Shown in pieces: positions 3,088 through 18,373 of a stretch of 18,506 nucleotides of DNA. Each line of letters begins with the position of its first letter. Position 1 is the first letter of the stretch. The position numbers were made by a program, and so were the translations under genes. The notes beneath the pieces are model-generated. The model did no database searches, was not told the origin of the DNA, and saw only the letters and a program-made list of their open reading frames with translations. The stretch comes from Promethearchaeota archaeon (GTDB lineage: Archaea > Asgardarchaeota > Lokiarchaeia > Sigyniarchaeales > SOKP01): NCBI GenBank assembly GCA_018238625.1, contig JABCSY010000080.1, positions 1-18,506 on the forward strand, read 5' to 3'.

Positions 3088-3633
3088 TTAAAGCATACCA
3101 GCATTTTCCATCATTTTACGCGCGATGTGTTCGAATATTTCTTCCACATTAACGCCTGTTTTAGAAGAACACTCATAAATACCTTGTAAATCGTGAGTTT
3201 TCGACAATTCAATTGCTTCTGTCGTTTCTACAGATCGTTTATCTTCAAGATCCAACTTTCCTCCGACCATAACTATAGGTATTTTTTTTTGTTGATCTCT
3301 CACATTTCTTTCAAATATCGAGAGCCAATCGTCTAAGTTCTTTATACTTGTGTATCTTGAAATATCATACATAAAGATCCCTCCATCAGCGCCTTTCGCA
3401 AAACTAGGTAAAAGAACTTTGAAGCGTTCCTCTCCAGCAAAATCCCATATTCGAACAACAACCTTTTTCCCTTCAATTTCGAATGTTTTAATAGAGAAAT
3501 CTGCTCCAATCGTCATTTTTAAATCTTCGTTAAATACTTTAGTAAGGTATCTTTGAATAAGAGTTGATTTTCCAACTCCTCCGTCACCAAAAATACACAA
3601 TTTAAAAGCACCATCTCGGTCGATTTTGAACAC
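3088..3633 (-). CDS. Rab/Ras-like small GTPase (eukaryotic signature protein type)
   Basis: G1 GDGGVGKS, G2 TIGADF, G3 WDFAGEE, G4 GKLD and G5 CSSK. There is no C-terminal Cys prenylation motif. Confidence 0.93.
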   Translation of the reverse strand: MFKIDRDGAFKLCIFGDGGVGKSTLIQRYLTKVFNEDLKMTIGADFSIKTFEIEGKKVVVRIWDFAGEERFKVLLPSFAKGADGGIFMYDISRYTSIKNLDDWLSIFERNVRDQQKKIPIVMVGGKLDLEDKRSVETTEAIELSKTHDLQGIYECSSKTGVNVEEIFEHIARKMMENAGML

Positions 3634-8067: not shown

Positions 8068-8820
8068 TTAGGTACTTTTATACTTATTATATAATTTTAA
8101 CCCGATAACATATATTATAATGCTTATAATTACAATTACTATAAGGTCAATCCAAATATTTACATCAGTTAAAGTGGTTCCATAAAAAATTCGGTACAAA
8201 GCGTCAGTAACATATTGACTTGGCATAGCATACCCAATTACTTTTGTTGCCTCGCCCATGTATATGAATGACCCAAACATTTGTTGTGGCACGATAAAGA
8301 TAAAAGCTAAACTACCTGCAGTTCTAGCATCTTTTGCAATAGTAGCAGTAATCAGTCCAAGCCCTACCGAGCAAAAGCTCAGAATGATCGAAAAAACAAA
8401 TACCAATGCTATCCCAGCAACAGTAATATTTGGGCGAAAACCTATGAGAAGCGCAGTTATTAAAATTATAGCTGTCTGGATGAGTGGTATGATAGTATAT
8501 GATAACATTTGACCTCCTATTACTTCTCCAGAGGTTATTGGAGTCGTATTCATTCTTCTTTGCAATCCGTTATCGCGGTCTCCAGTAACAGATGACGCGA
8601 CAGTAAATATTGTTAGAATACCTGAGTAAGCAAATAATCCCGGAACCATGTGTTCAAAAACACTTCTTTCAGGCCCCCATCCATAATTACTACCTAACGC
8701 TAGTGCAAGTATTATAACAAGCATCGCGACAAAAAATAGCGAGAAATATAGAAACATCGGTGTTCTTATCAGTTTTTTCATTTCCATCCTAAAAACTGTT
8801 AGAATTCTTTGTCTTTTCAT
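8068..8820 (-). CDS. ABC-2 type exporter permease
   Basis: About six hydrophobic segments and DRDNGLQRRMNTTP (ERxxG-like motif). Lies immediately downstream of an ABC ATPase. Confidence 0.9.
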   Translation of the reverse strand: MKRQRILTVFRMEMKKLIRTPMFLYFSLFFVAMLVIILALALGSNYGWGPERSVFEHMVPGLFAYSGILTIFTVASSVTGDRDNGLQRRMNTTPITSGEVIGGQMLSYTIIPLIQTAIILITALLIGFRPNITVAGIALVFVFSIILSFCSVGLGLITATIAKDARTAGSLAFIFIVPQQMFGSFIYMGEATKVIGYAMPSQYVTDALYRIFYGTTLTDVNIWIDLIVIVIISIIIYVIGLKLYNKYKST

Positions 8821-8822
8821 TA

Positions 8823-9641
8823 TTAAATCCCCTCCAAAATTCTTCTTCCGGTAATTTTTAAAAAAACCTCCTCTAAATTTTTAGATTTATGCTCTTCCAT
8901 CAATTTTTTAGGGGATCCCAGGGCTATTAACTTCCCATAATCAATAATCGCAACTCTATCGCAGAGGGCTTCTGCTTCTTCGATATAATGGGTTGTCAAT
9001 ATGATGGTTATATTTTGATTTTTTAAAGAACTGATAAAACCCCATGTTTTTCGTCGAACTCGAGGGTCCATTCCCACCGTTGGTTCATCTAAGAAGAGAA
9101 TTCTGGGCTCGTTTATTAACGCAACTAATAAATTTAATTGTCTTAACATTCCTCCACTATATCCTTTTACTTTCCGCTTACTGGCTTCAAATAAACCTAA
9201 TAACTTTAATAGTTTTTCTGCTCGTTCATTTATTTCTTTTTTCGACATCAGATGTAAGTTCCCGAAAAACTCAATATTCTCTATACCTGTAAGAAATTTA
9301 AATGCTGCCGCTTTTTGTGGGCATAAACCAATCAATTCTTTAATCATTTTAAGCTCTGTTTTTACGTTATGACCCCCAACAACCGCAGTCCCTTCTGTTG
9401 GTGAAATTAAACCAGATAGAATATTTATTATAGTTGTTTTTCCTGCTCCATTAGGTCCCAAAAGTCCGAAAATCTCTCCTTTTTTTACTTGAAAAGTAAT
9501 TCCATCAACAGCCTTAACTTCCTCAATGACTTTCTTGCTCGTGTAAATCTTTCTCAAATCCTTGACTTCAATGGAGTTTGAATTATCAGGATCAATGATA
9601 ACTTCAGGGCTTTTATTTTCATTTTTTTTAGTTTTTAACAC
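8823..9641 (-). CDS. ABC exporter ATP-binding protein (DrrA/NodI-like)
   Basis: Walker A GPNGAGKTT, signature YSGGM, Walker B LFLDEPT, H-loop TTH and LEEVFL tail. GAGGTG SD precedes the GTG start. Confidence 0.95.
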   Translation of the reverse strand: MLKTKKNENKSPEVIIDPDNSNSIEVKDLRKIYTSKKVIEEVKAVDGITFQVKKGEIFGLLGPNGAGKTTIINILSGLISPTEGTAVVGGHNVKTELKMIKELIGLCPQKAAAFKFLTGIENIEFFGNLHLMSKKEINERAEKLLKLLGLFEASKRKVKGYSGGMLRQLNLLVALINEPRILFLDEPTVGMDPRVRRKTWGFISSLKNQNITIILTTHYIEEAEALCDRVAIIDYGKLIALGSPKKLMEEHKSKNLEEVFLKITGRRILEGI

Positions 9642-9677: not shown

Positions 9678-10154
9678 TTATTCTTTTTTGTTCTCAATAA
9701 AAAATCCAATAAAATCATTAGAATAATCTTTAACTATTTCAAGAGCTCCATTCTCTAGGGCTAATCCGGCTCTATTTAGCTTTAAACGAAGTATTGGCGG
9801 ATATATTATTTCAGCGTTTATATTGTCTTGAAGAAATTCAACCCAGAACGGTTCGATTTTAATATCGGCTAGAGCAATATAAAAACCCGAAATAGCTTTA
9901 ACAATCAGATTCTTTCTTCTTGAAATTTCCCAGTATTTAAGCAGCCAATTTTGAATTTCCAAACTTGGGATTTCCTTACTTATCATGTCTCCTATTATCA
10001 AGTAATCAATCTTTTCTTCAACTAAGAAAGCAGGATCAATTTTTTTAGCATTTCCTACAGATATATCAACGTAATCTTCCAAGCGATCCTGGAGCATCTC
10101 AGCAATAATCTTTGAGAATCCAATTCCATTCTTATATATTATCCATAGTTTCAC
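9678..10154 (-). CDS. Flavodoxin-like fold protein (degenerate)
   Basis: N-terminus MKLWIIYKNGIGFSKIIAEMLQDRL follows the flavodoxin beta1-loop-helix pattern, and DYLIIG matches beta3. AGGTGA SD present. Confidence 0.6.
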   Translation of the reverse strand: MKLWIIYKNGIGFSKIIAEMLQDRLEDYVDISVGNAKKIDPAFLVEEKIDYLIIGDMISKEIPSLEIQNWLLKYWEISRRKNLIVKAISGFYIALADIKIEPFWVEFLQDNINAEIIYPPILRLKLNRAGLALENGALEIVKDYSNDFIGFFIENKKE

Positions 10155-10197
10155 TTTAGTTCACCTGATTTTTTTTAAATTTTTTTTTATTAATTAT

Positions 10198-10432
10198 AAT
10201 ACAGATTGGGGCTCTAATAAGAGCATGTTCGCTAACGTGGAAAAAAATTAACAACGGAGGCTTATAGTCTTTAAATAGAAAGAACTGTATTTTTATGTTG
10301 AATGTTATTAAACCTCAAGTTGAAAAACAATCTATTATATCAATAAAATTCACTTCTTTACACCGAAATGGATATGAATTGACACAAAAAATACCAAAAT
10401 TTTTTCCATTTGGTTGAAATTTGGGATGGAAT
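10198..10432 (-). repeat. Left arm of ~230-bp inverted repeat (duplicated promoter/leader region)
   Basis: 10198-10254 is the exact reverse complement of 11657-11713 (57 bp). Likewise 10394-10423 matches 11498-11527 (30 bp) and 10357-10374 matches 11547-11564 (18 bp). Confidence 0.95.
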
Positions 10433-10445
10433 AGAAAATATTAAA

Positions 10446-11330
10446 TTATTTAGTTCTAAGTAATTGGTCGACCCAAAAATCATAATAATTTGCAGATAAT
10501 ACAATTCGTGGAATTAAATCTTTGAATCCTTCAGTTTGTAGTTTTTCTTGAATTTTCTGGGATTCACTTGAAGTTTTTGCCCATGTGTGTATTGTAAAAA
10601 AGTTGGGAATATTACTATACCTTAGGCAATAAGCAACATTTTGAGAATATTCGTCATATATTTGTTGAATTGTAGAATTCATATTAGTTCCTTCTTTTAA
10701 AACTATGTGAAAAACTGTACTAAAATTATTTTCTGCTTTAGGAGACCATTCAATGGTAAATGTAGCTAGCTTATTCTCAATCATTCGATCTAATCGTTTT
10801 CTAACGGTTTTAGCAGAGATCCCTACATCATCTGCAATATCTGTTATAGGTTTCCTTGCGTCTCTATTTAAAGTCTTTAAGATTTTATAATCAATACTTG
10901 TTAGTGGTTCTGGTGTTGTGATGTAAGGCACATTTATAATTCCTATAGTCGGCTCACTAATATGAGCCGTTCTTGAAACATAACCGCTAAAATCTTGAAG
11001 TTCTGTTATATCCCTTAAATACCCAACAACATACAGAAATTTACCTCCTGCAATTACAATATAAAAAATACTTTCATGTTGCCCTAACTCTTTACTAACG
11101 GCATCCATCGATTTTGCATTAGAAGTGCCAAAAATCAAAACCCATAGATATTTTAATGCAATAATACTGGGTCGGGCAATAAAAGCATTGATAATCCCAC
11201 CATCTTCAAGGCTTCTTATACGTTTATGAATTGCGCTTATTGACATATTGGTCATTTCCGCTAATTCTCTGTAGGTCAAGCGAGAGTTTTTTGAAAGTTT
11301 TTTCAGAATGATTAAGTCAATGTCATCCAT
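10446..11330 (-). CDS. Tandem (two-module) Lrp/AsnC family transcriptional regulator
   Basis: Two HTH modules: MDDIDLIILKKLSKNSRLTYRELAE... and LTSIDYKILKTLNRDARKPITDIADDVGIS..., each followed by a RAM-like region. Start moved to the ATG at 11330. Confidence 0.9.
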   Translation of the reverse strand: MDDIDLIILKKLSKNSRLTYRELAEMTNMSISAIHKRIRSLEDGGIINAFIARPSIIALKYLWVLIFGTSNAKSMDAVSKELGQHESIFYIVIAGGKFLYVVGYLRDITELQDFSGYVSRTAHISEPTIGIINVPYITTPEPLTSIDYKILKTLNRDARKPITDIADDVGISAKTVRKRLDRMIENKLATFTIEWSPKAENNFSTVFHIVLKEGTNMNSTIQQIYDEYSQNVAYCLRYSNIPNFFTIHTWAKTSSESQKIQEKLQTEGFKDLIPRIVLSANYYDFWVDQLLRTK

Positions 11331-11487
11331 AATTCTTACTAGAATTGTATCAATTATATAGATATATAATTTTCTCATCAAATTTTTAAATTTTTTGGTA
11401 TTAAAGAAATATTATTTATACTTCTGGGATAATCGGAAGAATTACTGAATAACTTAATGCTCGCGAATTTTGAAGATTATAATTTAA

Positions 11488-11713
11488 ATTCCATTCTCAA
11501 ATTTCAACCAAATGGAAAAAATTTTGGAATGTTTTGATTCAATTCTTATCCATTTCGGTGTAAAAAAGTGTAATTTGTAGATATTTTTTTATTTTAAGCT
11601 TTTATAAATTCGAAGATAAATTAGCTTTCCTTTTATTTAATGACTATAAACCCTCTTTGTTAATTTTTTTCCACGTTAGCGAACATGCTCTTATTAGAGC
11701 CCCAATCTGTATT
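11488..11713 (+). repeat. Right arm of ~230-bp inverted repeat
   Basis: Reverse-complement match to 10198-10432 in two conserved blocks separated by about 60-70 diverged bp. Confidence 0.95.
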
Positions 11714-11773
11714 TTTACTAACAAATAAAATTATAAAAAAAAATTAAAAAAAAACATTTGGAGTGTGAAAAAA

Positions 11774-11956
11774 ATGAAAAATTGGAAAGAAGTAGTTGGC
11801 GCACTATTAGGCGTATTAATAGCAGTTGTTTGGTTAGCTGTTGGATTGATAGGTTTTCCTATCTTTTATGCCATTGCCCTTACTATGGTGTTAGGTGTAT
11901 TGGCTGGGGGATTTTATGCGACAAGTACTCAAAACAAAAAACAAAGCAATAATTGA
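11774..11956 (+). CDS. Small two-TM membrane protein
   Basis: Two Gly-rich hydrophobic stretches. The ATG at 11774 follows a GGAGTGTGA SD-like motif; the ORF track starts at the GTG at 11765. Confidence 0.75.
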   Translation: MKNWKEVVGALLGVLIAVVWLAVGLIGFPIFYAIALTMVLGVLAGGFYATSTQNKKQSNN

Positions 11957-12017
11957 AAAAAAGATGAAAATATTGGAAGCAATTAATAAAAAAATTAAAA
12001 ATTAAATTCTCTTTTTT

Positions 12018-12055
12018 TTAGTGAACATGCTCTTAATAGAGCCCAAATCTGTATT
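12018..12055 (+). repeat. Third copy of 38-nt hairpin leader element
   Basis: TTAGTGAACATGCTCTTAATAGAGCCCAAATCTGTATT is 35/38 identical to 11676-11713 and to the reverse complement of 10198-10235. Confidence 0.9.
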
Positions 12056-12087
12056 AAAATTAGTTTAAAAAAAAATTAGAAAAAAAG

Positions 12088-12621
12088 GTGAAAATTATAA
12101 AATCAGAAAAAACTGGAAATATGAATAAGGAAGTAATGCAAGAGTGTCCCTACTATAAATTAGAACATGTGGTTTTTAAGTTCGGTCAGATGGCTTTTGG
12201 CACCTTAGGACTAATATTTCTTAATTTATGGGTTGCTGTGGGGTATTTAATATATTCTATTGTGTTTAACTTTTTGGTAATGCCATTAATCCTTTGTAAA
12301 TACTGTTATTACAAAGTAAAGGAAACTACAATAGATAATAATACAGGGAAGACTACTGGGAAGCTTTTGCCTAAAGATAAATGGAAAGAATCGTACTTAA
12401 AGAAATTCGTAGCTTGCGGGAAAAAAGGGAGTTTCAATTATATCATAATATGGTTTTTCCCTATTGTCGGAATAGTCATTTCGTTCTTTTTGAGTTTTTC
12501 TATAGTTGCTCTACTATCTTTAATTGGCTTTATAGTTGTGATGGTGGTAATGATGATTTATACCAGGCGGAAATTCTGTCCAACATGCGCTATCAAGGAT
12601 GAATGCTATAGCTCATGGTAA
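12088..12621 (+). CDS. Four-TM membrane protein with Cys clusters (putative metal-binding)
   Basis: Hydrophobic helices flanked by CPYY, CKYCYY, ACG and CPTC...EC. The start is uncertain (12088 GTG, 12097 ATA or 12121 ATG). Confidence 0.75.
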   Translation: MKIIKSEKTGNMNKEVMQECPYYKLEHVVFKFGQMAFGTLGLIFLNLWVAVGYLIYSIVFNFLVMPLILCKYCYYKVKETTIDNNTGKTTGKLLPKDKWKESYLKKFVACGKKGSFNYIIIWFFPIVGIVISFFLSFSIVALLSLIGFIVVMVVMMIYTRRKFCPTCAIKDECYSSW

Positions 12622-13040: not shown

Positions 13041-13119
13041 CCCTAATATGTATTATTATTAACTTAATTGGTACTAAAATTTAAAAAAAAAAAAAATTAA
13101 AAAATAAAGGTGATAAAAA

Positions 13120-17953: not shown

Positions 17954-18373
17954 TTATTTGATAATATCAGTTATAAAACAAGTTTCTACTATTTTTATTC
18001 CCGCGACCTGAGAGATTTTGTCCTCAATTAACGGATTAAACATTTCGATAGAGGCGATATCTACTTTCATGAGAAGGCCACAATCTCCAGATAACCTCCA
18101 AATAGCCGTTATTTCGTCAATTTCCTTTAATTCGCTCAAAATTCGCTTAATGTCTTTGAAGTCAGGCTCTATTTTTATGGTTGCGGAAGTTTTAGGTTTT
18201 GTGTCGATCTCATAATCTATAGTAAACCGCTTGATAATTCCATCTTCTTTCAATTTTTTCACTCTTCTTCTAACGGTTGCCTCCGTTTTGCCTATACTCT
18301 TACTAATGTCACTAAACGACATTCTACTATCCATTTTTAATTCTTCTAAAATCTTAATGTCTATAACATCCAT
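17954..18373 (-). CDS. Lrp/AsnC family transcriptional regulator
   Basis: N-terminal HTH MDVIDIKILEELKMDSRMSFSDIS...TVRRRVKKLKEDGIIKRF and a C-terminal RAM domain (LSGDCGLLMKV). Confidence 0.93.
   Translation of the reverse strand: MDVIDIKILEELKMDSRMSFSDISKSIGKTEATVRRRVKKLKEDGIIKRFTIDYEIDTKPKTSATIKIEPDFKDIKRILSELKEIDEITAIWRLSGDCGLLMKVDIASIEMFNPLIEDKISQVAGIKIVETCFITDIIK

Follow-up and report, generated by a model that had tools for sequence, protein, structure and literature searches.

A conserved element of ~57 bp beside the gene of a tandem Lrp/AsnC-type regulator in Asgard archaea: a candidate operator joined to a putative core promoter

Introduction

What is the function of a 38-nt sequence that stands three times, each time directly in front of a gene, in an 18,506-nt stretch of DNA from a Promethearchaeota archaeon (contig JABCSY010000080.1; hereafter the window)? 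An initial annotation, made from the letters of the window, regarded it foremost as a hairpin in the leaders of messenger RNAs and thus as a candidate cis-regulatory RNA; an operator of palindromic DNA and a cassette-junction site were named as further possibilities. To our knowledge, there is almost no experimental work on how the transcription of individual genes is controlled in Asgard archaea, and a literature search on transcription start sites and promoters in this group found no Asgard start-site study.

The genome (assembly GCA_018238625.1) is represented by 4.29 Mb in 201 contigs with a G+C content of 32%. It encodes three TBP genes, and a gene for a Ras-family GTPase lies within the window, which marks the source as an Asgard archaeon whose promoters are of the BRE/TATA type.

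Copies of the Element in the Window and Their Downstream Genes

The 38-nt pattern was recovered at the three places reported earlier (Table 1) with 0 mismatches to its degenerate consensus, and none of 200 dinucleotide-preserving shuffles of the window contained a match. All three copies are in sense orientation, at distances from a start codon close to the 30-60 nt given in the initial annotation: 43 nt separate the end of copy 1 from the GTG at 10154 and 60 nt that of copy 2 from the ATG at 11774, and for copy 3 the distance is 32 nt to the GTG at 12088 or, if translation begins at the ATG at 12121, 65 nt. The A-rich tract described on the 3' side was seen after every copy. Copies 1 and 2 are identical in sequence, and the three differences of copy 3 (flank C>T, loop T>A and flank C>A) fall, as had been noted, in flank and loop positions and leave the stem GCTCT/AGAGC intact.

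Copies 1 and 2 are embedded in a ~275-nt inverted repeat, the arms of which (81% identity) bracket the minus-strand gene of a 298-aa regulator. Read along arm 1, this intergenic module consists of a dyad at 10366-10411, just past the regulator stop codon, a variable part, a second conserved block ("block 2," TTTCTATTTAAAGACTATAAGCC), a T-run, the core of the element, a TATA-like box and the A-rich tract. Copy 3 indeed stands without the rest of the long repeat, since it has only ~67-77 nt in common with the other copies and lacks the upstream 200 nt of the module. A fourth copy exists in the same genome at C199:9490-9527, a paralogous locus where it lies 3' of a regulator paralog (69% identity) in the same arrangement as in the window. 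A profile scan with nhmmer --max over the 4.29-Mb assembly returned these four copies only, all of them at its two loci with a clade-A regulator (see below).

Table 1. Features of the window, with positions and strands.
Feature	Position	Strand	Basis or remark
ABC-2 permease	8068-8820		after the ABC ATPase gene; Pfam
ABC ATPase	8823-9641		after the 158-aa gene; Pfam
Flavodoxin-like protein, 158 aa, 3' of copy 1	9678-10154	-	ESM atlas flavodoxin clusters at 0.92
Whole intergenic module, inverted-repeat arm 1	10169-10441	-	sequence comparison
Copy 1, TATA-like box TATTATAATTAA	10190-10201	-	10 bp past the palindrome; putative TATA function
Copy 1 of the element	10198-10235	-	sequence match; per-position conservation
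Copy 1, parts	GAACAT 10230-10225; semi-palindrome GCTCTTATTAGAGC 10224-10211; then CCCCAATCTG; TATA-like box begins 10201	-	
Copy 1, T7 run	10241-10247	-	~10 nt 5' of GAACAT; candidate oligo-T terminator closing the regulator transcript
Tandem (double) Lrp/AsnC-type regulator, 298 aa	10446-11330	-	Pfam, PDB matches, AF2 model
Duplicated module, inverted-repeat arm 2	11479-11742	+	81% identical to arm 1; opposite side of the regulator gene, facing the 60-aa membrane-protein gene
Copy 2 of the element	11676-11713	+	GAACAT 11681-11686; palindrome 11687-11700; T7 run 11664-11670
Copy 2, adjoining TATA-like box TATTTTTACTAA	from 11710	+	degenerate
Copy 2, second AT box AAATTATAAAAA	near 11726-11737	+	
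Membrane mini-protein, 60 aa, 3' of copy 2	11774-11956	+	
Copy 3 of the element	12018-12055	+	T8 run 12012-12019; TATA-like box TATTAAAATTAG 12052-12063; GGTGA 12087-12091
Membrane protein, 177 aa, 3' of copy 3	12088-12621	+	no family match

The flavodoxin-like protein encoded 3' of copy 1 has no match in Pfam or NCBIfam and a weak BLASTP match (E 0.003) to a flavodoxin-domain protein of C199. A gene homologous to that of the membrane mini-protein 3' of copy 2, encoding 54 aa, is found 3' of the element at locus L042. Over all loci the apparent targets include flavodoxin-like and flavodoxin-4Fe4S proteins, ABC ATPases and ABC exporters, mini membrane proteins, Zn-ADH-type oxidoreductases, a tautomerase-like and a DODA-like protein, the flavodoxin-like protein being the commonest. 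This set of small redox and export proteins suggests a role in a stress or detoxification response.

Occurrence in Related Genomes and Linkage to One Regulator Clade

A search for copies elsewhere with a covariance model, as proposed in the initial annotation and run here with a sequence-only model, yielded 28 copies in 18 of the 42 genomes of the genus. The element is always oriented toward a gene that starts 45-110 nt on its 3' side, and all 27 copies for which downstream sequence is available face an open frame opening at most 86 nt away, although two of the frames are doubtful or mere remnants.

A full regulator gene on the same strand lies directly upstream of 16 of the 28 copies, with its stop codon 198-220 nt before the core. 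Two further copies are preceded by a 3' remnant of the regulator only, at its usual place, one locus shows the order element, 54-aa membrane gene, regulator, and two are copies 2 and 3 of the window, which stand beside the same regulator as copy 1. Two copies are cut by contig ends, and for the remaining five, which include the two weakest matches of the scan, no regulator lies within 0.9-1.5 kb. Over all scans, the copies that stand without a nearby regulator are L026, L030, L037, L081 and L085 and the weak matches L034 and L040. No regulator match at E<=1e-20 was found in genome G014, which is 100% complete and carries a diverged copy.

Searching in the opposite direction, with the regulator protein, gave matches in 74 of the 121 genomes of the order, among them a clade of close relatives with 58-100% identity as well as clades of paralogs at ~40% and 30-36% identity. 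Twenty-two loci with a clade-A regulator (64-100% identity) were compared, 10 of them already contained in the genus scan and 12 new, from four other genera. The element is present at 21 of the 22, ~180-220 nt past the regulator stop codon and on the same strand, among them 11 of the 12 new loci; the exception, L065, is rearranged past the first conserved block. It was found at none of the eight loci with distant regulator paralogs (32-40% identity). An exact-pattern scan of a public genome collection returned 13 stretches with 16 copies, and the regulator is encoded in 11 of these 13 stretches. In some genomes units of regulator, element and gene form arrays, the number of copies per genome being at most 4.

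This distribution bears on the possibility that the element is an unusually conserved core or extended promoter for general factors (TBP or a TFB paralog) that is merely co-inherited with a regulator which does not bind it. The presence of three TBP genes, the copies without a nearby regulator and the fixed spacing of the TATA-like box described below would be compatible with such a promoter, but a class of this kind should be widespread, whereas the source genome has only its four copies, all at regulator loci, and the paralog loci have none. Furthermore, ~30 bp of high-information sequence extend 5' of the TATA-like box, far beyond a BRE, and we consider this explanation unlikely.

Test of the Hairpin Across Relatives

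In the source genome the element looks like a small structured RNA: a perfect stem of 5 bp closing a loop of 4 nt can be drawn in all four copies and, like leader RNAs of Rfam, it lies in sense orientation in front of genes. Conservation of the stem was examined in an alignment of 35 copies, from which L031/L032 (diverged, identical), L027 and L033 (partial) and L034 and L040 (weak) were omitted. Of the cells of the 5-bp stem 82.3% are paired, as compared to 81.9% with shuffled partners, and 203 of 500 shuffles reached a value as high. Among the 175 stem cells 31 are unpaired and 1 is compensatory, and at least one stem pair is broken in 22 of the 35 copies. The 5' arm occurs in 16 variants and the 3' arm in 8; the arms change independently of each other, and conservation resides in the 3' half.

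RNAalifold predicted 0 pairs on the 35-copy alignment and likewise 0 pairs on the whole module (24 of the 26 available sequences, with copy 3 and a duplicate left out). Folds of single element sequences are weak (z -0.7 to -1.7), and the ~200 nt between regulator stop codon and T-run gave z values of -1.38, +0.31 and -0.81 in three paralogous copies, with unlike folds. In agreement with the earlier statement that the element was not recognised as a known riboswitch or SECIS element, a search of the entire window with cmscan (Rfam 15) returned 0 matches at E<=1. Unlike the leader RNAs collected there, the element thus combines the lack of a family match with the lack of covariation and of a consensus fold. 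Because pairing of the stem equals the shuffled expectation and no consensus structure emerges, the reading put forward first in the initial annotation is unsupported, and we regard a structured hairpin RNA with the stem GCTCT/AGAGC as extremely unlikely. As this case shows, a DNA site can incidentally give rise to a small perfect hairpin that recurs within a genome.

Translation within the element was considered as well. A leader peptide could begin at an ATG in the core (MLLLEPQSVL in copy 1), which occupies the equal place in all four copies of the source genome and opens frames of 10-20 codons; this ATG is present in only 22 of the 35 copies, however, with stop codons after 2-6 codons in several of them, and no third-position pattern of changes is visible, which leaves an upstream ORF barely conceivable. 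A small conserved ORF in the upstream part of the module was also discarded, its ATG not being conserved (by eye).

A Conserved Module of ~57 bp With Promoter-Like Geometry

The conserved unit covers ~57 bp and is composed of a T-run, GAACAT, a semi-palindrome, which in the source genome has the form GCTCT-TATT-AGAGC, CCCCAA and, at fixed spacing, the TATA-like box TATTAWAATTAA. In the 35 copies conservation is unbroken from the T-run via GAACAT, (C/T)TTATTAGAG and CCCCAA to the box, with peaks at positions G23, C26, G39, C45, C46 and C50 and with the columns of the T-run conserved in 32-35 of the 35 copies. Mean pairwise identity amounts to 0.81 in the core and 0.75 in the TATA-like box, as compared to 0.51-0.56 in the intergenic DNA on either side (0.51-0.54 in the middle part of the module); the regulator proteins of the compared loci are only ~65-72% identical. 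Because core and box are so much better conserved than the DNA nearby and pairing is not kept, the pattern argues for selection on the sequence itself. The element is genuine and subject to selection.

The TATA-like box begins 10 bp past the dyad, a distance that is constant in the 35 copies. At the eight loci with a flavodoxin-like target, a conserved AAAATC block begins 26-28 nt past the start of the box, a recognisable SD-like motif (AGTGAG or GGTGA) follows it at six of the eight, and the start codon comes after another 13-19 nt. The AAAATC block thus stands where transcription from an archaeal promoter would be expected to start, and the arrangement as a whole agrees with that of archaeal promoters with short leaders; from this we infer that the box may serve as a TATA element and that transcription would start shortly upstream of the coding sequence. 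For copy 1 the box predicts a start near 10165-10172, just 5' of the SD motif GGTGA and the GTG at 10154. The spacer at the expected position of the BRE is not purine-rich. A genome-wide alignment of upstream regions on SD motifs (383 of 1673 regions kept) was flat in composition and gave no usual TATA-to-SD distance, and aragorn identified only 12 tRNA genes, the upstream regions of which are too AT-rich for fixing the TATA distance.

Alternatively, the promoter might lie further upstream, e.g., at block 2 (TTTCTATTTAAAGACTATAA), and the conserved sequence might be an unstructured, sequence-specific motif of the 5'-UTR that a protein, an sRNA or an enzyme of RNA processing recognises. The strict sense orientation and the confined distance to the starts speak for such a motif, as does block 2 itself, which is AT-rich, partly conserved and situated ~45 nt 5' of the core. 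But the leader would then contain the conserved T7-T8 run, and archaeal RNA polymerase terminates at oligo-T tracts. Moreover, copy 3 and the copy of G048 have no block 2 yet retain the core and the TATA-like box, neither structure nor covariation was detected, and the linkage to a clade of DNA-binding regulators fits a DNA site better. We therefore hold a 5'-UTR motif to be improbable and prefer to interpret the conserved sequence as DNA, the TATA-like box next to it being the candidate promoter.

The Tandem Lrp/AsnC-Type Regulator

The regulator combines two modules, each with an HTH and a RAM-like domain, in a single chain. Its conserved N-terminus MDxIDL begins at the ATG at 11330, and the ORF remains open further upstream to a TTG at 11381. 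Pfam assigns two HTH_24/HTH_AsnC stretches and gives no match to its RAM model; in the PDB, the Lrp regulators PH0061, LrpA and PH1519 match residues 2-140 with their full length. An AF2 model built on 25 homologs (pLDDT 92.7, pTM 0.89) contains the HTH and a beta-alpha-beta-beta-alpha-beta domain twice per chain. The two recognition helices are unlike each other (S-x-S-A-I-H-K-R-I vs. S-A-K-T-V-R-K-R-L).

The top full-length fold match of the model is an enzyme, NirDL (4ch7; TM 0.62/0.60, 12-14% identity), while each half matches structures of true Lrp regulators at 20-28% identity. NirDL is itself a fused tandem protein of the Lrp/AsnC fold and has the two-module, single-chain architecture in common with the regulator. 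An assignment as siroheme decarboxylase NirDL/AhbAB was nevertheless rejected: besides the low identity, the scores stay below the family cut-offs (16.1 vs. 125 for NCBIfam AhbB and 24.3 vs. 27 for Pfam NirdL-like_HTH), and the neighbouring genes in the examined loci are diverse and not recognisably involved in haem biosynthesis. A literature search over titles and abstracts turned up no description of a double Lrp regulator fused into one chain.

Recognition helix and DNA site were seen to change together in one lineage only (G004/G042), in which a change of RKRL to RKHL in the second HTH coincides with the most diverged right half of the site; these are too few cases for a conclusion. Locus L086, a second candidate for such a co-change, was dropped since its gene is truncated.

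A Candidate Operator Joined to a Putative Core Promoter

We favour the interpretation, with a probability of roughly 0.6, that the element serves the neighbouring regulator as an operator and is fused to the core promoter from which the downstream gene is transcribed. Among the alternatives named in the initial annotation the DNA operator is the best supported because of the tight linkage to the regulator and the TATA-like box at fixed distance; in relatives, however, the element is conserved asymmetrically and not as a strict palindrome.

According to this model, the oligo-T run would probably end the upstream (regulator) transcript. The sequence-specific site would be GAACAT-N3-(C/T)TTATTAGAG-N-CCCAA, and the ~6 variable bp after it could be the place of a weak BRE, beyond which the TATA-like box, the A-rich stretch, the SD motif and the start codon would follow. 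The most likely binding partner of this site is the adjoining tandem Lrp/AsnC regulator, a covalent pseudo-dimer in which the two recognition helices differ, an arrangement that would fit the asymmetric conservation of the site. As to the sign of regulation, we infer activation as the favoured mode, because no more than a few bp separate the end of the site from the expected BRE: the bound protein might help TBP and TFB onto a weak promoter, as in the case of Ptr2, LysM and Ss-LrpB. Repression through occlusion of the BRE is nearly as likely.

These three activators act through TBP from a dimer site that lies in a constrained position, a few bp away from the BRE, and the targets of Ptr2 of Methanocaldococcus jannaschii are small, ferredoxin-like redox proteins (PMC2995911). 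The arrangement described here resembles that of Ptr2 and of the two Sulfolobus regulators LysM and Ss-LrpB in having a putative site just 5' of the presumed BRE/TATA, at a constrained distance from it, and next to or near the regulator's own gene. It differs from all three in that the regulator is a single-chain double Lrp protein and not a homodimer or octamer, in that the putative site is asymmetric and single instead of a cluster of semi-palindromes, and in the location of the module past the 3' end of the regulator gene, at a fixed distance of ~200 nt. As with Ptr2, the targets of which include rubredoxin, redox proteins are found among the apparent targets, here most often flavodoxin-like ones.

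Optimal FFRP sites consist of an arm of 5-6 bp, a centre AAT/ATT and a second arm (PMC2715240), and in the source genome GCTCT-TATT-AGAGC resembles FFRP/Lrp SELEX boxes (FL11, FL10, TvFL3, Ss-LrpB) in its short, GC-containing arms around an A/T centre. In contrast to those boxes, its centre measures 4 bp and not 3, its left arm is as variable in relatives as noted above (16 variants), and the strongly conserved flanks GAACAT and CCCCAA lie outside the dyad.

Several observations speak against an operator. A semi-palindromic box of the size usual for Lrp proteins, 13-15 bp with an A/T-rich centre, is present in the source genome, but relatives do not keep it as a palindrome, and the classical symmetric Lrp box is not seen among them. 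Lrp targets usually carry clusters of sites, whereas the element is a single one: a PWM scan that covered 230 nt of upstream sequence at 24 loci detected no recurrent second copy of the core, and the best second matches were in most loci about as good as those in shuffles. In addition, the box adjoining copy 2 is degenerate, the BRE spacer is poor in purines, the genome-wide alignment showed no usual TATA-to-SD distance, and the best fold match to the full-length regulator is the enzyme NirDL. There are also the copies without a regulator nearby and the complete genome G014, which has a diverged copy but no regulator match.

The third possibility raised at the outset, a cassette-like junction or portable module behind which recombination would insert or exchange unrelated genes, held in so far as the downstream genes vary. 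They differ widely indeed, units of regulator, element and gene occur in arrays, and the module is duplicated in the window in inverted and in partial form. A precise junction and a recombinase were not found, however: the ORFs of the window include no integrase, transposase or recombinase, the duplication breakpoints are ragged (regulator 3' remnants of ~19, 57 and 69 aa), and conservation fades gradually into the A-rich tract. The low copy number per genome likewise argues against it, and paralogous pairs of regulator and target account for the variety of genes; we find such a junction very unlikely.

It is tempting to speculate that the regulator gene together with a ~270-bp tail (3' dyad, T-run, operator and promoter) forms a portable platform that has repeatedly captured unrelated effector genes and so builds arrays. 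We consider this decidedly unlikely, but if it were true, the platform would represent an archaeal, recombinase-independent counterpart of the gene-cassette system. In a related bold variant, the protein bound to the element, ~10 nt behind the T-run, would also be a roadblock that sets the termination of the regulator transcript, and one site would then couple autoregulation with activation of the target.

Implications for Gene Regulation in Asgard Archaea

The comparison across relatives removes the RNA reading of a hairpin repeat that had been seen in one genome. The operator-promoter interpretation offers in its place a concrete and testable pair of regulator and candidate DNA site for Asgard archaea. 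The candidate site is sharply defined (~57 bp) and shared by several genera that belong to a single Asgard family, and the pair could be tested in vitro without the need for a genetic system.

Sequences flanking the regulator and its putative target genes

The gene of the tandem Lrp/AsnC-type regulator is followed by an interrupted dyad that is duplicated in the inverted arm of the module (see table). Over 24 related modules, pairing of the dyad held in 68.8% of cells as compared to 63.9% after shuffling, a value that none of 500 shuffles attained, and double changes were found in 11 of 16 pairs (19/500), in a test that is biased because the structure was drawn from the very same 24 module sequences; slid controls gave 36-54%. 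The dyad may form a hairpin in the 3' UTR, or it may be a second site bound by a protein.

Features of the window outside the 38-nt element
Feature	Position	Strand	Description
A-rich tracts	11732-11770, 12064-12102, 13080-13118		similar to each other, ending GGTGA or GGAG, upstream of three successive genes
Interrupted dyad	10366-10411	-	AAATGGA..TTTTGG-N11-CCAAAA..TCCATTT, 35-80 nt past regulator stop
Interrupted dyad, second copy	11510-11555	+	in inverted arm
Ras-family small GTPase	3088-3633	-	Pfam Ras, E 4.5e-44
Second Lrp/AsnC regulator	17954-18373	-	ordinary single-module, HTH_AsnC + AsnC_trans_reg

The sequence GGTGAT(A/T)AAAATTA recurs past the element in several relatives, irrespective of the gene that follows. 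The start codon of the flavodoxin-like gene is GTG in the window (10154) and ATG in two relatives, while five others (L028, L038, L052, L053, and L054) have ATT or ATA at the equivalent position, 6-7 nt past an SD-like GTGAG. The sole canonical start of the 177-aa gene downstream of the third element copy (12088) falls within the SD GGTGA, as does that of the gene on the contig carrying the regulator paralog and the fourth copy (G000:C199:9567), and both genes have an in-frame ATT a few codons further on. The ATT/ATA codons and the canonical starts lying within the SD suggest that non-canonical start codons could be in use.

Other genes of the window

The presence of a Ras-family GTPase is in keeping with an Asgard genome. 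A search of the window with the 38-nt pattern found no copy of the element near the single-module Lrp/AsnC gene.

Related regulators and their sites

Units of regulator, element and gene are found in arrays at L086, G083:C56, and G084:C52. The first of these, an 8.3-kb contig of a Promethearchaeota MAG, carries three elements, a 69-aa regulator remnant and two regulator genes, one of them truncated by a premature stop. Six regulator matches lie in ~13 kb on G083:C56. Two contigs of ~3 kb with the archaeal regulator and element (L077 and L083) are assigned to bacterial MAG bins, Ignavibacteriaceae and Cellulophaga, which most likely reflects mis-binning.

The most diverged right half of the element, TTATAAGCCTCAA, with a 2-nt deletion, occurs at L031/L059 (G004:C269) and L032/L060 (G042:C42), in whose regulators the second recognition helix carries RKHL rather than RKRL. 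Because these loci represent a single lineage, the co-change gives no more than a hint that the right half might be read by the second HTH.

Double Lrp paralogs of ~40% identity at L068 (G060:C66) and L069 (G059:C108) are directly followed, past the stop, by a perfect palindrome, TTTCAAC-N6-GTTGAAA, and the two loci share GTACATTGATTTAAWTATA upstream of the next gene. At L067, which belongs to the same paralog clade, a flavodoxin-like gene again lies 3' of the regulator. Each regulator clade may have a private site of its own.
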